Virus genome (UHGV): UHGV-0048443
Strand: one strand, 5' to 3'
From: a virus
Length of the DNA: 19,110 bases
The position numbers and the translations under genes were made by a program. Position 1 is the stretch's first letter; each line of letters starts with the position of its first letter. The notes beneath the pieces were generated by a model. The model was not told where the DNA came from, made no database searches, and saw only the letters and a program-made list of their open reading frames with translations. Shown here piece by piece: positions 50-8,035 of this stretch.

Positions 50-859
50 TTATTCTTCTGAATTATCGATTACACTGTATTCCCCGGTTAATACAGAGGA
101 GTCTGCCGGATCGATTGTCAGTGGTTCCTTTTCATCCATTGATACTGCACGCTGGATTTCAATTGAGACAGGCAGGTATTTAAACAGGCGACGAATAGCC
201 GTTTTTTTTGCCATTTCTTCCCAGTGAGTTACCCATGGCCCGTTATTACCAGCCTTACTCTGGCTGCGCACCAGTTCAATCTGTTTGCGCGTCATAACTT
301 CAAACTGAGTCCCTCCGTCTTTCAGTCTTGCGACAGCATAGACGTGGGTCACTGGTGCATCTTCGTTTTCTCCCGGGCGGTGTATTAACTTTTCATCAAG
401 GCCAAATTCAAAACTAAACTCGTCACCTTCACGGACAACACGGGCTGACAGGCTGGCGATTTGACCAGAACGGCGAGCCAGATCAATCATGCCGCGATAA
501 CCAATGATTAGCTGAACGTTCTTTTTACCGCTCTTTTCGTTTTTATTACCAAAAGGCAGTAAATATGCGTGGCCGAGGGCGCTACCTGGCTCAAGGCCGA
601 GCTGTGAACACTGAACGATCGCACTGACAAAACTCATGGTGTCACAGTTTCCTAGCGCCGGAACCTTACGAATTTCTGTGGTGGCGATACGTATCATTCG
701 TTCAGCCGTCATATGGCGTGGGAGAGCTGCTGCCAGTTGCTCTTTCATTGATGGCTGATTAATAAAGCTGATCACGTCGTTATTTTTTACTGCTGCTGGT
801 GCACGGTTTCCCTGGGTTTTTTGCAGATCGGCTTTTGCGATAGGTGGTTGCTTAGTCAT
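50..859 (-). CDS. recT: RecT single-strand annealing recombinase (Rac prophage type)
   Basis: 269-aa product starting [14 protein letters not shown]..., recognised from memory as E. coli Rac RecT. Start chosen at the internal ATG (859) with GGAG Shine-Dalgarno 6-9 nt upstream, not the ORF-track upstream Met. Overlaps recE stop by 8 nt as in Rac. Confidence 0.9.
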
Positions 860-3527
860 TTGCATACTCCTTAGCCCAGCGGGGCAGTGATAACGTTTTA
901 ATAGCTGGCCATTCATCGGTATTCAGGCAGTCAGCAAGGGTCCTCAGATTGCGGTGATATTCCTGCTGGCCTGCCAGTTTTGCTTCTTCGCCCATCATGA
1001 AAATCTCAACCGGGTAACGTCCGCATTCAACAGTTGTGCTGGCAACCAGAAAAACGAAAGTTGGCAGCACGCCAAACTGTGCTTCATAACCGTCACTGTA
1101 GAATGCATCCTGAACGTGATAGCGGTAGTCGTAATAAGCCGTTTTGAATCGTTGAATATCCGCTGTGGTTTTCACGTCCATGATCCAGTGAAATTCAGGG
1201 ATAATTTTGTCCGGACGGCACCGACACAAAATTCCTGTTTCAGGATCTTCCCAGTAAATTGATGATTCAGCGTGTCCGGCGCTTTCAACAAGCCATTGAC
1301 CCAGCGGCAAAGCCATAACGCTCTGATACATGAGTTCAATTTTCCGGCCTTCTTCGGCAGTGATAACCGTTTTTCCTGTACTTGCGCATTCCATCAGAAA
1401 CGCTTTCTCCTCTTCTTTTCCGGCGGTTGTACGGCGGTTAAATTCAGGTGCCACGATAAAGCGGTTACTGAATTCTTCCGGTTCAAGTACACGGCAGTGG
1501 AAAGCGGTTCCTAAATCGAGCGTTTTTGTCTTTGTGGTGTCCACTGGGGCATTTTTACGCCACAAATACAGAGCCGGAGTATCAGCAATGTCGTCGAGCT
1601 GAGACTTACTGACACCGGGACCCGCGTGGTAATTCTCATTCGAAATTCCGTAATAAATACCAGGCTCTATGTCTCCTGCGATTACGGGATCTGCGACTTC
1701 GCCAGTTTCATCACTGCAATCGCGATGCGGATCGCTGCCAGCATTCTCATTGTGCGGATGTTCAGGGCCTTCCATTTCCTCCGGATCTTTTTCCTGAGAT
1801 TCATCCAGATTTTCTTCATTAAAGGTTTCCTGATACGTGGTGTCGCCCATCACCGCGCCACAATCAGGGCAGTTGCCGCCACCGCTCTGACCGCAGGCGG
1901 CACAGACTTTTTCCGGTTCCTGTTGCGCTACTGGTTCTGATTGTTTCGTTTCTGGCTCGTTTTTCTGTGCATTTGGGCTGTTTTGTTTCGCTTTCTGGTT
2001 GTTTTGTTCCGATTCGGGCTGGCTCTGGTTCACAGAATCGCGGGTTTCAATTCCCTTAACCCATTTCGGATCATTCGGGTCGCTAATCCCTTCAACAAAT
2101 TCTCCGCGAGAGGCAGCCAGCAATTTGTCGGCATCGACAGGATTTTTGGGCGGAATGGTTTTCCGGGCTTCATGGAGTTCTGCCCGCAGTTTCTGATATT
2201 TCGCATCAACAGAATTTACCTGTGACTGAGCATCCAGCGGCTGCGTGTCCTGATGATGTTCAGTTGCATCCGGTTCCACTGTTTCAGCCGTTGCCTGTTT
2301 ATCTGCCATTGCGCAAGATGGTTGCGGTTTTTCTTCACCATCGTGTTTTCCTTCTTCTGTTACACGCTGCGGCATCGGGGCAGAGGAACGACCGCAGGCA
2401 ATATCCACGATTTCCGGATCAGGGGTGGCATGATCGGTTTCAATCAGCACCTTGTTCAGATATTCAGTGACATGCGCAGGGATAACCTCGATCCCAATTG
2501 GTGCTTCTTTTACGGACGCAACCACGATGGCGCGGGAATAATCCAGCCCGCCAGGCATGGTGATGAATTTGTCGCGGAAAACAGAAAAGGGCGGTTTATT
2601 TTCAGCGATAATTTCCTCGACACGTTTAGCGTGTGCCGGATGAAGGTTATAAATGTCCACGTCCATTGAACGAGCCAGTACGCCAGTGGCTACGTCGCGC
2701 GCCAGTGACGTCAGATCGTGAACGAAACCTTCGCCGCGATCGGTGAGGTTCCCGCCGCCAGCATTAGCGCCGGAAGCCGTGCGCGTGATGCGTGAAACAC
2801 GATTTCCTTTCATCCACTCTTTTGTCAGCAGACCACGATCGGTGTAGTCTGCGTCCAGGTATGCTTCGAAAAAAGCAGTCATCAGCCCCAGGCTTGAATT
2901 GCCTGGATTAGGGAAAACTCTGTCAGTATCACGCACCAGTTTGTGGAGATCGCGAATTTCCAGCGGGTCGAGCAGGCTGGTTTTGTGGGAAACAGCCAGG
3001 GCAGTAACAGCTGGTAGTTCTTCAGCTCGTGCAATGTGTAATGCCTGGAGTTCGTCGCGTGAAACGTGCGTTACCGGTTTTTCGCTGCCGTGTTGAGCAA
3101 GCCAGCGAATGGGCAGCTCCTGACCGGAAATCGGGAGTAGCATATTCTCCTCAATCTCCGTCATGTCTTCGCCATTAACATTGGTATTGTCAGTGCTGGC
3201 TGGTTTGTCCTGCGCAGAGGATGAGGGCGCGATAAATACCATTGTGATGCCATCTTCCCCGCCTTTTTCGTAACGGTTGCAGAATTCCGTATCAAATACG
3301 CCCTCTGGTGGAAGGTCATCAACAACGGGCAAATTGACGCGAACAGGTTTTTTAAAGTCATCTTCATCGTAGCCAGCATCGTCAATCGCAACAGCACCAC
3401 GGGATATGGCAATGGATAATTTTTTCGCTTCAGCCCAGTAGAAACCGCCTTTAATACCGAGACGTTTTCTTACTTTGTCATTTTTTGCTTCGTAATACAG
3501 TGGGTAAACTTGTTTATCGGTGCTCAT
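852..3527 (-). CDS. recE: RecE exonuclease VIII (5'-3' dsDNA exonuclease), 891 aa
   Basis: C-terminal ~270 aa ([36 protein letters not shown]...WAKEYAND) matches the RecE nuclease domain from memory. Long acidic/low-complexity middle with a Cys cluster ([16 protein letters not shown]). GAGGT SD upstream of ATG at 3527. Immediately upstream of and overlapping recT. Confidence 0.85.
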
Positions 3528-5238: not shown

Positions 5239-5658
5239 TTACTCCGGTGGGGGATTATCTTTAAGCCTGCCTCTCAAATATTTTTCTACATACTCATCGA
5301 TTTCTTTTAGCCGGACTTCAAATAGCTCAATCATTCGTTGTTGTTCTGAGCCCGGTAGCTGGTTAAACAACTCAAGAAGTTTTCGTTGGGATTCATTTAA
5401 CCACAATTCAGAAGATTCCTGTTCTCCAAAGAGGAGCTCAGGAGGAGATATGCCAAGTGCCTTTCCCAATACGACAGCGTCATGCACTCCAACATTTCTG
5501 CTGCCCGCCTCATAGTTACCTATACGCGATTGCGTCCATCCGCAGATTTCAGCAAGTTTTCCTTGAGATAAACCAAGCTTCTGCCTGCGCTCTTTAAGAC
5601 GCATTGCAATTTTGTCATTGAGCCTACTAGCGGCAATTTTTTCGTTTTCTTTTTCCAT
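5239..5658 (-). CDS. racR: Prophage repressor, XRE/cI-type HTH (RacR-like), 139 aa
   Basis: HTH signature QGKLAEICGWTQSRIGNYEAG; divergent from a Cro-like gene; AAGGA SD before ATG at 5658. Assignment as racR is by synteny with Rac plus the HTH, not by exact sequence recall. Confidence 0.75.
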   Translation of the reverse strand: MEKENEKIAASRLNDKIAMRLKERRQKLGLSQGKLAEICGWTQSRIGNYEAGSRNVGVHDAVVLGKALGISPPELLFGEQESSELWLNESQRKLLELFNQLPGSEQQRMIELFEVRLKEIDEYVEKYLRGRLKDNPPPE

Positions 5659-5669
5659 TGCATCCTTGT

Positions 5670-5684
5670 ATCACGAATCGTGAT
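5670..5684. promoter_or_regulatory. Dyad ATCACG-aat-CGTGAT in the divergent promoter region
   Basis: Perfect 6-bp inverted repeat 12 nt upstream of the repressor start codon on the opposite strand; candidate operator. Confidence 0.4.
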
Positions 5685-5705
5685 TTACATAAAACACAAA
5701 ACAGC

Positions 5706-5736
5706 TTGACCATATAACACAAGATGTGTTTAAAAT
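5706..5736 (+). promoter_or_regulatory. Candidate sigma70 promoter for the rightward early operon (TTGACC ... TAAAAT), overlapping the dyad AACAC-aagat-GTGTT (5716-5730)
   Basis: -35-like TTGACC at 5706-5711, -10-like TAAAAT at 5731-5736 (19-bp spacer; TTTAAA at 17 bp). The operator-like dyad sits in the spacer. About 20 nt upstream of the ydaS-like start. Confidence 0.35.
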
Positions 5737-5754
5737 TGTCATCGGAGGTTTTCA

Positions 5755-5997
5755 ATGAACAAAATTTCAACATATCGAAAACAGCTTGGGCTGTCTCAAA
5801 GACAACTTGCTGTTCAGTTAGGGTGGATACAAAGCCGACTGGCAAATTACGAAGCAAATTTTCGTACCCCTGGACTAGAGGAGTGCAGAAAAATTGTTTC
5901 TACCCTTAATCGGCTTGGCGCTCATTGTGGACTTGACGATGTATTCCCCCCAGACGGTAAGCATAGCGAAAACAGCATAGGAGCGGTTGATTCATGA
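5755..5997 (+). CDS. ydaS: Cro/YdaS-like HTH regulator (80 aa)
   Basis: HTH LGLSQRQLAVQLGWIQSRLANYE; GGAGG SD before ATG; divergent from the repressor; stop overlaps the ydaT start (ATGA). Confidence 0.7.
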   Translation: MNKISTYRKQLGLSQRQLAVQLGWIQSRLANYEANFRTPGLEECRKIVSTLNRLGAHCGLDDVFPPDGKHSENSIGAVDS

Positions 5998-6416
5998 AAA
6001 TCAGGCATGAGCACATCGAATCAGTGTTGTTAGCCCTGGCAGCCGAAAAAGGGCAGGCGTGGGTCGCTAACGCAATTACTGAAGAATATCTGCGCCAGGG
6101 GGGCGGCGAATTGCCCCTTGTACCAGGCAAGGACTGGAACAATCAGCAGAATATCTATCACCGTTGGTTGAAAGGTGAAACGAAAGCGCAAAGGGAAAAA
6201 ATTCAGAAACTGATCCCTGCGGTTCTGGCAATTCTTCCGCGCGAGCTGCGTCACCGACTCTGCATCTTCGATACCCTGGAACGCCGTGCATTACTGGCGG
6301 CGCAGGAAGCGTTGAGTACGGCAATTGATGCGCATGATGATGCAGTCCAGGCCGTTTACCGGAAAGCACATTTCAGCGGTGGTGGGTCGCCCGGCGATTC
6401 TGTCGTAGTGCATTGA
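5994..6416 (+). CDS. ydaT: YdaT-like protein (140 aa)
   Basis: Product MKIRHEHIESVLLALAAEKGQAWVANAITEEYLRQGGGELPLVPGKDWNN... recognised from memory as Rac YdaT; translationally coupled to ydaS. Confidence 0.8.
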   Translation: MKIRHEHIESVLLALAAEKGQAWVANAITEEYLRQGGGELPLVPGKDWNNQQNIYHRWLKGETKAQREKIQKLIPAVLAILPRELRHRLCIFDTLERRALLAAQEALSTAIDAHDDAVQAVYRKAHFSGGGSPGDSVVVH

Positions 6417-6461
6417 TTGAAATTAATCGTGCCGGATTGTTTTGTTCGGTATCAGTTAAAT

Positions 6462-6480
6462 GTAACGCTGCGAGCGTTAC
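6462..6480. repeat. 19-bp dyad GTAACGC-tgcga-GCGTTAC (copy 1, 14 nt upstream of the ydaU start)
   Basis: Perfect 7-bp inverted-repeat arms; same arms recur at 6654-6672 and 6861-6879. Confidence 0.5.
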
Positions 6481-6493
6481 AAGGTGAAAACAA

Positions 6494-7282
6494 ATGGCTT
6501 CAAACTGGATAAAGCTCGAGGTTATTACGCCGGATAAGCCGGAAATATTCAGGCTTGCTGAGATTCTGAATATTGATCCAGATGCCGCATTAGGGAAGGT
6601 TATTCGCTTCTGGGCATGGGCGGATCAACAAATGATAGACGGTAATGCAGATTGTAACGCTCGCGGCGTTACAAAAAGTGCAATAGATCGCATCACTTTT
6701 ATGGCTGGTTTTGCTGATGCGTTAATTCAGGTTGGATGGCTGGTCGAAAATGACGTTGGGCTTTCTCTACCTAACTTTGAACGTCATAACGGAAAAAGCT
6801 CTAAAAAACGGGCGGTTACAAACGAGCGAGTTACAAAAATACGCGAACTGAAACGAAAAGGTAACGCTGCCAGCGTTACACAAACGGATCAAAAAGCGTT
6901 ACCAGAGGAAGAGGAAGAGGAAGATATAAATACTGATCTCCCCCTAAATCCCCCTCGCCAAAAACGAGCGTCTAAAAAATTCGAGCCGGAGGCTATTGAG
7001 CTGCCCGATTGGTTGCCGGAAACACTCTGGCATGAGTGGGTCCGGTTCAGACAGGCATTGCGAAAACCGATTCGAACGGAGCAGGGCGCTAACGGGGCGA
7101 TACGGGAACTGGAAAAATTCCGTCAGCAGGGTTTTACACCTGAGCAGGTGATTCGACACAGCATCGCCAATGAATACCAGGGCCTGTTCGCGCCGAAAGG
7201 TGTTCGGCCTGAGACGTTGCTCCGACAGGTTAATACCGTCTCGTTGCCGGACAGTGCGATCCCGCCAGGCTTCAGGGGGTAA
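6494..7282 (+). CDS. ydaU: YdaU-like phage replication initiation/organiser protein (lambda O-like), 262 aa
   Basis: Product MASNWIKLEVITPDKPEIFRLAEILNID...; AAGGTGA SD; sits directly upstream of a DnaC-like loader gene; acidic linker EEEEEED; contains the repeated dyad sites. Confidence 0.8.
   Translation: MASNWIKLEVITPDKPEIFRLAEILNIDPDAALGKVIRFWAWADQQMIDGNADCNARGVTKSAIDRITFMAGFADALIQVGWLVENDVGLSLPNFERHNGKSSKKRAVTNERVTKIRELKRKGNAASVTQTDQKALPEEEEEEDINTDLPLNPPRQKRASKKFEPEAIELPDWLPETLWHEWVRFRQALRKPIRTEQGANGAIRELEKFRQQGFTPEQVIRHSIANEYQGLFAPKGVRPETLLRQVNTVSLPDSAIPPGFRG
6654..6672. repeat. 19-bp dyad GTAACGC-tcgcg-GCGTTAC (copy 2, inside ydaU)
   Basis: Perfect 7-bp arms, identical to copies 1 and 3. 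Confidence 0.5.
6861..6879. repeat. 19-bp dyad GTAACGC-tgcca-GCGTTAC (copy 3, inside ydaU), with GTTAC half-sites nearby (6815-6834, 6896-6902)
   Basis: Perfect 7-bp arms; degenerate half-sites ggcGGTTACaaa / gaGTTACaaa and aGCGTTAC flank it. Confidence 0.5.
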
Positions 7283-7288
7283 CGGACC

Positions 7289-8035
7289 ATGAAAAATATT
7301 GCGACAGGCGGCGTTCTGGAACGCATCCGCCGACTGACCCCGCCACATGTAACCGCCCCATTCAGAACGGTAGCGGAGTGGCGCGAGTGGCAACTTGCTG
7401 AAGGCCAGAAACGTAGCGAGGAGATCAACCGCCTGAATCGTCAGTTGCGGGTGGAAAAAATCCTGAATCGCTCTGGCATCCAGCCGTTGCACCGCAAATG
7501 CTCGTTTGCGAATTACCAGGTGCAGAACGAAGGGCAGCGATACGCGTTAAGCCAGGCGAAATCCATCGCCGATGAACTGATGACCGGGTGTACAAATTTT
7601 GCGTTCAGCGGAAAACCTGGTACCGGGAAGAATCACTTAGCGGCAGCTATCGGGAATCGCCTGCTGAAAGACGGTCAGACAGTGATTGTGGTTACCGTGG
7701 CTGATGTTATGAGTGCCCTCCACGCCAGCTATGACGACGGGCAATCAGGCGAAAAATTTTTGCGGGAACTGTGCGAAGTGGATTTGCTGGTTCTTGATGA
7801 AATTGGCATTCAGCGCGAGACAAAAAACGAGCAGGTGGTACTGCACCAGATTATTGATCGACGGACAGCGTCGATGCGTAGCGTGGGAATGCTGACAAAC
7901 CTGAACTATGAGGCCATGAAAACATTGCTCGGTGAGCGGATTATGGATCGCATGACCATGAACGGCGGACGCTGGGTGAATTTTAACTGGGAAAGCTGGC
8001 GCCCGAATGTCGTCCAGCCAGGAATCACGAAGTAA
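7289..8035 (+). CDS. ydaV: YdaV-like DnaC/IstB-family AAA+ helicase loader (248 aa)
   Basis: Walker [16 protein letters not shown] and Walker [10 protein letters not shown]; follows the O-like gene. Confidence 0.85.

Follow-up and report, generated by a model that had tools for sequence, protein, structure and literature searches.

Dyad sites embedded in the initiator gene of Rac-like prophages and related phages: a probable replication origin

Repeated sites at the initiator gene

The window analyzed here, namely the whole stretch of 19,110 nucleotides (nt) from the virus genome UHGV-0048443, is a Rac-like Escherichia coli prophage in which a replication initiator gene contains, within and just upstream of its coding sequence, copies of a 19-base-pair (bp) dyad, GTAACGC-N5-GCGTTAC, accompanied by isolated half-sites and a polypurine tract. 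The initiator, of 262 amino acids (aa), combines an N-terminal domain (hereafter N-domain) with a distinct C-terminal domain (C-domain). The features of this locus are listed below in window coordinates.

6462-6480, unstranded: dyad 1, GTAACGCtgcgaGCGTTAC, exact match; non-coding, 32 nt 5' of the initiator ATG and just 5' of the Shine-Dalgarno sequence
6494-7282, plus strand: replication initiator gene, 262 aa, 789 nt; PHROG 2509 'replication initiation protein' (E = 2e-89)
6494-6868, plus strand: N-terminal DNA-binding-type domain of the initiator (aa 1 to ~125), followed by a disordered acidic linker
6642-6648, unstranded: extra half-site GTAATGC, decayed, 12 bp 5' of dyad 2
6654-6672, unstranded: dyad 2 (site A), GTAACGCtcgcgGCGTTAC, exact match; codes for C-N-A-R-G-V-T in a surface loop of the N-domain
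6815-6819 and 6830-6834, plus strand: two direct GTTAC half-sites, the left edge of the site-B cluster
6861-6879, unstranded: dyad 3, the core of site B, GTAACGCtgccaGCGTTAC, exact match
6896-6902, plus strand: terminal half-site GCGTTAC, adjoining the purine tract as GCGTTACCAGAGGAAG
6904-6924, plus strand: polypurine tract, AGAGGAAGAGGAAGAGGAAGA, a 21-nt pure purine run coding for the EEEEEED linker
6923-6939, unstranded: short A+T-rich stretch, GATATAAATACTGATCT
7001-7279, plus strand: DnaT-like C-terminal domain of the initiator (aa 170-262); PDB matches 2ru8_A (E = 9.3e-5) and 9zbt_D (E = 3e-4)

The three perfect-arm copies reported by an earlier sequence-only reading of this DNA are all exact matches to the dyad and are the only ones in the window (starting at 6462, 6654 and 6861, that is, 192 and 207 bp apart from start to start); the exact dyad was absent from 200 dinucleotide-preserving shuffles of the window, and raising the tolerance to 3 mismatches did not reveal a fourth copy in it. 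The heptamer GCGTTAC occurs 9 times in the window, compared to 1.9 expected, and 7 of these 9 occurrences fall inside 6462-6902. The half-sites that the same reading placed at 6815-6834 and 6896-6902 are present as well, and so is its threefold GAGGAA repeat, which starts at 6905, within the 6904-6924 purine run, and not at 6906. Together, the downstream sites make up site B, a cluster of 5 half-sites within 88 bp (6815-6902, gene offsets 321-408) in the order GTTAC (6815), GTTAC (6830), dyad, GCGTTAC, purine run, GATATAAATACTGATCT; the half-site at 6896-6902 is translated in a reading frame that differs from that of the other half-sites. The GC content drops to 0.375 in 6900-6939, and there is a strong A-over-T skew in 6780-6980. 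DnaA boxes (with at most 1 mismatch) were not found between 5734 and 8182, and a promoter scan of 5600-7400 produced a sole match, at 5736-5765, with none near any dyad. Purine or pyrimidine runs of at least 18 nt are found only twice in the 19-kb window; in addition to the 6904-6924 run, there is one at 1403-1421 (CTTTCTCCTCTTCTTTTCC), inside the minus-strand open reading frame 852-3527 (recE according to the annotation of strain P4).

The structure matched by the C-domain, 2ru8_A, is the solved C-terminal domain of E. coli DnaT, which binds single-stranded DNA. The Pfam model of the DnaT C-terminal domain, PF17948, stays below threshold on the window protein, and relatives from ZX5, BUCT554, VW-6S and epsilon15 match it. 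The initiator has no Pfam family match even at E <= 1, and a word-indexed protein search with the N-domain retrieved mostly fragments, with no Pfam domain. The resemblance to the 'O-like' proteins of PHROG 678 and to Gifsy-1 O (40% identity) is confined to the C-terminal part. The N-domain family comprises 6,637 cluster representatives (50% identity clusters) at E <= 1e-3, and the genes of this family are mostly annotated as 'hypothetical protein' or 'primosomal protein I'. In an AlphaFold2 (AF2) model, the core of the N-domain is confidently predicted, and the site-B cluster falls between this core and the disordered linker. The predicted local distance difference test score (pLDDT) is below 50 in the site-A segment (residues 50-56) and in that of the purine tract and subsequent linker (residues 127-162), and only about 50 across the site-B codons 108-136. 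The low confidence of this loop and linker suggests that sites A and B are located where the protein tolerates them.

Conservation of the sites with the N-domain

A first set consisted of eleven phage loci encoding relatives of the initiator (N-domain identity 31-97%). In it, phages of Escherichia, Klebsiella, Enterobacter, Xanthomonas (65% GC), Ralstonia and Pseudomonas have both intragenic dyads at matching codon positions. When viral contigs were scanned for the exact dyad, at least 120 loci were identified, with 187 dyads among the matches listed. Within these listed matches, an N-domain homologue is encoded in 103 of the 120 loci (30-100% identical, median 49%), including all 52 multi-dyad loci, and 168 of the 187 dyads are concentrated at three set distances from the start codon of the homologue, with 17 at -25 to -50, 78 at 135-170 and 73 at 330-445.

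A motif-blind sample of 80 loci was drawn from species-representative genomes, using N-domain peptide patterns that do not overlap the sites, so that ascertainment by the motif is removed; these loci represent Enterobacterales, Pseudomonas, Burkholderiales, Planctomycetota, Verrucomicrobiota and other groups. A copy of site A with no more than 1 mismatch is present around codon 50 in 66 of these 80 loci; for site B (codons ~113-137), 52 loci have a copy with up to 1 mismatch and 68 have one with up to 2. Outside these sites, the closest match to the dyad within a ~3.4-kb locus usually differs from it at 4-5 positions. In the lineages that lack site A, the respective loop consists of other residues and site B is retained. 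The upstream dyad, at -32 to -44, is found in 12 of the 80 loci, all from Enterobacterales, where it forms a conserved island amid diverged upstream DNA.

Across the family, site B follows a common plan: (GTAAC-N7)n, GTAACGC-N5-GCGTTAC, N6-7, (GC)GTTACC, then (T)AGAGAAGAGAAGAG... or AGAGGAAGAGGAAG..., and finally an A+T-rich stretch. In most homologous loci, the site-B dyad is bordered by direct arrays of half-sites spaced by 11-12 bp, and the overall spacing of site-B half-sites, 11-14 bp, corresponds to about one helical turn. The junction GTTACC(T)AGAG... is kept in nearly all homologous loci, taking the form GTGACCAGAG in the GTCAC class described below, and a tract of the (AGAGAAG)n or (GAGGAA)n type follows site B in most of the 80 loci as well as in phage epsilon15.

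Duplication of a half-site has left a trace in the protein. The Rac-type genes share a specific insertion of 4 codons (ADCN or AECN), which is a duplicated 12-bp half-site (6642-6672 in the window; 1349-1379 in locus L001) and falls in the low-confidence loop of residues 50-56 in the AF2 model. In the window, the extra half-site has decayed by one synonymous change, AAC to AAT; at this position, the related Rac record MN652886 reads GTAACGCagagtGTAACGCtcgagGCGTTAC, with the insertion as GTAACGCagagtGTAACGC....

A few dyads lie apart from these positions. In L181, a contig of a Mesorhizobium metagenome-assembled genome, a perfect dyad is located beyond the interval from -100 to +600 relative to the initiator start, and the viral loci L017 and L103 have an additional dyad several kb away from the initiator gene.

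Constraint at the DNA level

For 58 non-redundant genes, taken from genomes with 41-68% GC, codon usage at site A was compared with that at the remaining conserved positions. The glycine of site A is encoded by GGT in 52 of 55 genes, compared to 71 of 300 other conserved glycines (p = 2e-24); the valine by GTT in 47 of 53, compared to 55 of 203 elsewhere (p = 2e-16); and the asparagine by AAC in 50 of 50, compared to 67 of 88 elsewhere (p = 4e-5). The remaining 6 of the 53 valine codons are GTG, which matches GCGTGAC, the right arm of the GTCAC class. Translation of site B makes use of all three frames, yielding G-N-A-A-S-V-T in the window, V-T-P-T-A-L-Q in ZX5 and, in Xanthomonas, G-N-A-D-G-V-S. 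The purine tract codes for EEEEEED in enterics and for REEKRRED in other groups, and its translation in different frames indicates that it, too, is a feature of the DNA. The sequence-only reading had proposed aligning ydaU loci of other Rac-like prophages to find out whether the dyads are conserved beyond codon constraint, and across the homologous loci they are: codons are forced at site A, which recurs in 66 of the 80 loci, and site B, which recurs in 52, is read in all three frames. Taken together, these comparisons indicate that the constraint on the sites is at the DNA level and is inherited with the initiator N-domain across phyla.

These data bear on the explanation that the repeats simply reflect a peptide motif, xNAxxVT, which recurs in the protein, and have no function at the DNA level. 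Dyads 2 and 3 do share a frame in the window, each coding for N-A-x-x-V-T, as such an explanation would have it. However, dyad 1 lies outside the coding sequence, the half-site at 6896 uses a different frame, the homologues translate site B in every one of the three frames, and the synonymous positions of site A are fixed against the usage at other conserved positions. We consider this explanation excluded by the codon and frame data, to the extent that its residual probability is negligible.

The N-domain as the probable reader of the sites

The half-site variants observed in the family form discrete symmetric classes that switch at both sites of a locus together. GTCACGC/GCGTGAC is found in loci L194, L196, L206 and L211, and GTTGCGC/GCGCAAC in L159; Vibrio phage 1.211 (L009) has GTCAC/GTGAC at 1652-1670 and 1859-1877, with a purine-rich repeat after the second cluster. 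Such concerted changes of half-site class imply a shared reader. The annotated neighboring genes vary among the phage relatives, with a ydaT or CII-like gene, a methylase, an antirepressor or a phosphoesterase gene upstream and DnaC-like, P-like, DUF1064 or RuvC genes downstream. The C-domain of the initiator varies also, being DnaT-like in some relatives and undetected in others. The N-domain is the one constant partner of the sites and, accordingly, we propose from these sequence comparisons that it is the N-domain of the initiator that probably reads the dyads and half-sites.

Comparison with the lambda origin and iteron plasmids

In phage lambda, as in the window, dyad-symmetric repeats are located inside the initiator gene, at the joint of its DNA-binding N-domain and its C-domain, the part assigned to recruitment of the helicase loader; the four iterons of lambda are at offsets 348-432 of gene O, and the window cluster is at offsets 321-408. 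In both cases, a purine-rich and A-rich tract follows on the coding strand, namely the purine and A-rich tract ACAAAAGAAAAAAGAAAAGATTATT after the lambda iterons and AGAGGAAGAGGAAGAGGAAGATATAAATA after the window cluster, and a helicase-loader gene comes next after the initiator gene. There are also differences. The lambda half-site is ATCCCTC as opposed to GTAAC(GC); lambda has four tandem iterons of 18-19 bp (~85 bp in total), whereas here half-sites are spaced by 11-14 bp and two more conserved dyads are located ~200 and ~400 bp upstream; the lambda tract is an A-run, as opposed to a G+A repeat, (GAGGAA)3 or (GAGAA)n; and the window encodes a DnaT-like C-domain and a DnaC-like loader that is not lambda P. 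An hhalign comparison of the N-domain with residues 1-150 of lambda O gave a probability of 0.25%, a weak test given that the target was a single sequence. Thus, the layout and the position within the gene appear to be the same as in lambda, whereas the sequences and the N-domain appear unrelated.

The origins of iteron plasmids such as pSC101, R6K and P1 consist of intergenic direct repeats of ~17-22 bp, usually with DnaA boxes. They resemble the window locus in the presence of repeated initiator sites beside an easily opened tract and of inverted copies near the initiator gene that serve autoregulation, and differ from it in that the iterons are intergenic and usually come with DnaA boxes, whereas the window sites are intragenic and no DnaA box lies between 5734 and 8182.

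A candidate origin inside the initiator gene

We propose that the dyads and half-sites are initiator-binding sites that form the origin of replication of the phage, a reading that we consider likely. It is based on the DNA-level conservation of the sites, their link to the N-domain, the concerted changes in specificity and the lambda-like layout, all of which are observed directly. The origin proper would consist of the half-site cluster 6815-6902, the polypurine tract 6904-6924 and the A+T-rich stretch 6923-6939, and hence would be located in the initiator gene at the joint of the DNA-binding N-domain and the DnaT-like C-domain. In the tentative model, initiator molecules would fill the site-B half-sites about one helical turn apart; the two outlying dyads (6654 and 6462) would be auxiliary sites that bind more initiator and either contact the site-B complex by looping or reduce transcription of the initiator gene; the adjoining purine and A+T-rich tract would then open; and the C-domain, together with the DnaC-like YdaV, would bring in the host DnaB helicase. 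Under this model, the polypurine tract is proposed to be the region of unwinding or helicase entry, YdaV is the presumed partner of the initiator, and dyad 1 is a probable auxiliary or autoregulatory initiator site.

Several points weigh against this proposal. Binding by the N-domain, unwinding of the purine tract, recruitment of the helicase and origin activity are all steps that we infer, and the searchable literature yielded no experimental study of this module. The three perfect dyads are ~200 bp apart, as opposed to the tandem iterons of lambda. The A-to-B spacing ranges from ~189 to 264 bp among the homologues, with no helical phasing, which makes looping speculative. The A+T-rich stretch is short, with a GC minimum of only ~0.375, and is both shorter and less A+T-rich than that of lambda. 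In single-stranded form, each dyad can also fold into a stable hairpin, at -7.6 to -9.4 kcal/mol (z of -3.2 to -4.6 compared to shuffles), a property discussed below. Finally, residues that could account for the change of specificity are hard to pinpoint: residues 109 and 113, in a basic helix, differ between the GTAAC and GTCAC classes, which is at most a hint given that only 6 related sequences, confounded by phylogeny, are involved. The N51H replacement was considered as a case of specificity covariation and rejected, being merely the GTAAC to GTCAC change in the DNA itself.

The sequence-only reading had likened the sites to the iterons of lambda and, at the same time, pointed to their dispersed spacing as unusual for an origin. 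The comparative evidence and the lambda-like layout support the former idea, with binding and origin activity being features of the model; the concern about spacing is resolved in part, in that site B is a compact cluster of 5 half-sites in 88 bp, with the two other dyads as conserved outliers. Overall, that interpretation is upheld only partly, given the inferred status of binding and origin activity, the failure of one of its suggestions (operators for YdaS or YdaT; see below) and the half-correct label 'ydaU'.

A more specific mechanism, to which we assign a low probability, is that an R-loop at the polypurine tract drives the origin by primosome logic, with the initiator and the origin evolving as one unit across phyla. 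Transcription through the initiator gene would produce a purine-rich RNA forming an unusually stable hybrid with the pyrimidine template where the initiator is bound; the DnaT-like C-domain would treat the displaced strand as a substrate for replication restart, and DnaB would be loaded via the DnaC-like YdaV. In this scheme, the cis-sites would dictate the protein, as in the N51 to H51 change that accompanies GTAAC to GTCAC and in the duplication of the 12-bp half-site that adds 4 residues. If correct, it would explain in concrete terms how lambdoid origins undergo 'transcriptional activation'.

Operators, hairpins and other explanations

The most serious competing possibility is that the dyads are only autoregulatory operators, bound by the initiator or a different phage protein so as to limit transcription of the initiator gene, the true origin being elsewhere. 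The initiators of many iteron replicons autoregulate, which lends some credence to this idea, as do the location of dyad 1 just upstream of the ribosome-binding site and the ~200-bp spacing of the sites, which is common in looping operators. Nevertheless, site B adjoins a conserved purine and A+T-rich tract at the position of the iterons of lambda, and the scan of 5600-7400 detected no promoter-like sites near any dyad. Operator and origin roles are compatible, so that only the 'not an origin' form of this explanation is a genuine rival, and in that form we regard it as improbable. The alternative suggested by the sequence-only reading, operators for YdaS or YdaT (considered here together with the prophage repressor), is very improbable. 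The dyads do share an operon with ydaS and ydaT and follow these genes directly. However, YdaT of CP-933P has been footprinted on TTGATT-N6-AATCAA at the end of ydaS (PMC9986795), a motif unlike the GTAAC dyads. Its matches in the window lie elsewhere: TTGATTcatgaaAATCAg, at 5987-6004, lies at the ydaS/ydaT junction, the same location as that reported for CP-933P, and TTGATTgaaattAATCgt, at 6413-6430, overlaps the stop codon of ydaT and precedes dyad 1 by 32 bp. With 3 matches compared to 1.6 expected, these operator-like repeats are not above chance by count alone. Moreover, the dyads persist in phages of Xanthomonas, Ralstonia, Klebsiella and Escherichia whose neighboring genes differ and in which no ydaT is annotated; on computational grounds, the suggestion fails.

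Alternatively, the dyads could act as hairpins, whether as stem-loops in the mRNA that control its processing or translation, as an antisense terminator or as single-stranded DNA signals for primosome assembly. In addition to the folding energies given above, this possibility is compatible with the terminator-like score of minus-strand dyad 3 followed by CTTTTCGTTT (6851-6860) and with the DnaT-like C-domain of the initiator, DnaT being a primosome protein. However, the arm sequences are invariant, with no free covariation and only a few symmetric classes that switch at both sites; the isolated direct-repeat half-sites are unable to pair; the Pseudomonas clade tolerates GCGTTAG, which breaks the outermost pair; and the T-run after dyad 3 is not conserved outside the enteric clade. 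There is no Rfam family match either: scanning 6200-7300 with Rfam 15 produced one chance-level match only, to a snoRNA model (E = 0.97), and a scan for intrinsic terminators produced no plus-strand match and a single weak minus-strand match, at dyad 3. We therefore consider a hairpin function quite unlikely, and return to initiator-binding sites forming an origin as the preferred reading.

Mosaic 'ydaU' genes and epsilon15-type phages

The Rac prophage of E. coli K-12 has the same gene order as the window (repressor, ydaS, ydaT, initiator, ydaV, ydaW), but the initiators are only partly homologous. Only aa 139-262 of the window protein, the C-terminal 124 aa, align with K-12 YdaU, at 81% identity. 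K-12 YdaU has a DUF1376 N-domain (E = 2.7e-26), whereas the window protein has no DUF1376 match; an hhalign comparison of its N-domain with the DUF1376 domain of K-12 YdaU was negative, again a weak test with a single-sequence target. K-12 ydaU (L212:2620-3477) has its own repeats, (A/G)TGTTCAAACA, at the same domain joint (L212 2972-3088). Thus, the 'ydaU' of Rac-like prophages is a mosaic, in which unrelated N-domains each come with their own repeat family, and the label given by the sequence-only reading is appropriate for the C-terminal part of the window protein and not for the dyad-carrying N-domain. According to statements in PMC3945230 and to Potrykus et al. 2000 as cited in PMC11014345, Rac has an active origin, oriJ. 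Because the window carries a specificity module other than that of K-12, any published oriJ data do not transfer to the sites described here.

The start of the C-terminal module common to the window protein and K-12 YdaU is marked by the motif CCCCCTAAATCCCCC (C5-N2-6-C5), located at 6940-6954, ~15 nt after the purine tract, where it codes for PLNPP, and at L212 ~3134-3150 in K-12. It is present in 10 of the 80 protein-selected loci and in none of 1,056 background windows, and may represent either an element of the origin or a recombination joint. A GGGGG run comes after it in some loci, such that a hairpin is possible.

The epsilon15-type phages (Uetakevirus) and their relatives, among them epsilon15, ZX5, TL-2011b and BUCT554, encode a homologous N-domain (31-66% identical) and share the two-cluster layout, with the second cluster adjoining a ...CCAGAG(A/G)AAGAG... 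purine tract. ZX5, TL-2011b and BUCT554 have GTAAC half-sites and lack the upstream dyad, whereas epsilon15 and BUCT711 differ in having GTCCGC half-sites. In epsilon15 (L011), these form clusters of four (++--) at 1555-1606 and 1834-1874; 8 of the 10 GTCCGC copies in the locus are in the gene, compared to 2.3 expected for the whole locus. In the region of epsilon15 that was analyzed, no origin feature is annotated, and we found no paper describing one.

Implications

Origins composed of iterons within an O-like gene are already known. In the searchable literature, which does not cover the early oriJ papers (on the K-12 module), we found no description of the present motif or of an origin for this type of initiator. 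The locus differs from the known kind in a large, distinct N-domain family with no Pfam model, accompanied by a near-invariant 19-bp dyad kept across bacterial phyla; the split arrangement, with one or two outlying dyads ~200 bp from a half-site cluster; a tract of G+A repeats, where opening is likely to occur; and cis-sites with a visible imprint on the codons and residues of their probable binding protein, which they dictate.

If the proposed function is correct, a single signature, namely two dyads at fixed intragenic positions, with GTTACC and a (GAGAA)n or (GAGGAA)n tract after the second of them, would mark the origins of a very large family of temperate-phage modules, with hosts from Enterobacterales to Planctomycetota, and would allow direct annotation of origins in prophages and viral contigs. 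The module would also offer a small testable system of one domain and one 19-bp site with natural specificity variants, and a clear case of gene-embedded binding sites constraining the codons and residues of their probable reader. Furthermore, E. coli Rac-like prophages would hold at least 2 non-interchangeable modules of origin and initiator, all of them named 'ydaU'.

Genomic context

The other genes of the replication region in the window are the following.

5239-5658, minus strand: helix-turn-helix (HTH) repressor gene
5755-5997: Cro- or YdaS-like HTH gene
5994-6416: ydaT
7289-8035, plus strand: ydaV, DnaC-like helicase loader; NCBIfam PRK12377 (508.8 bits), DnaC (E = 7e-91), Pfam IstB_IS21 and Bac_DnaA
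after ydaV: DUF1627 gene

The prophage adjoins an integrase and includes recET, kil and a lysis and terminase region. The segment 5200-8100 is 100% identical to E. coli strain P4 (NZ_CP072688), and at least 80% of the 2.9-kb version present in the window is found in ~127 of 5,426 complete E. coli genomes. The terminator-like site formed by dyad 3 on the minus strand could stop antisense transcription into the N-domain coding region.

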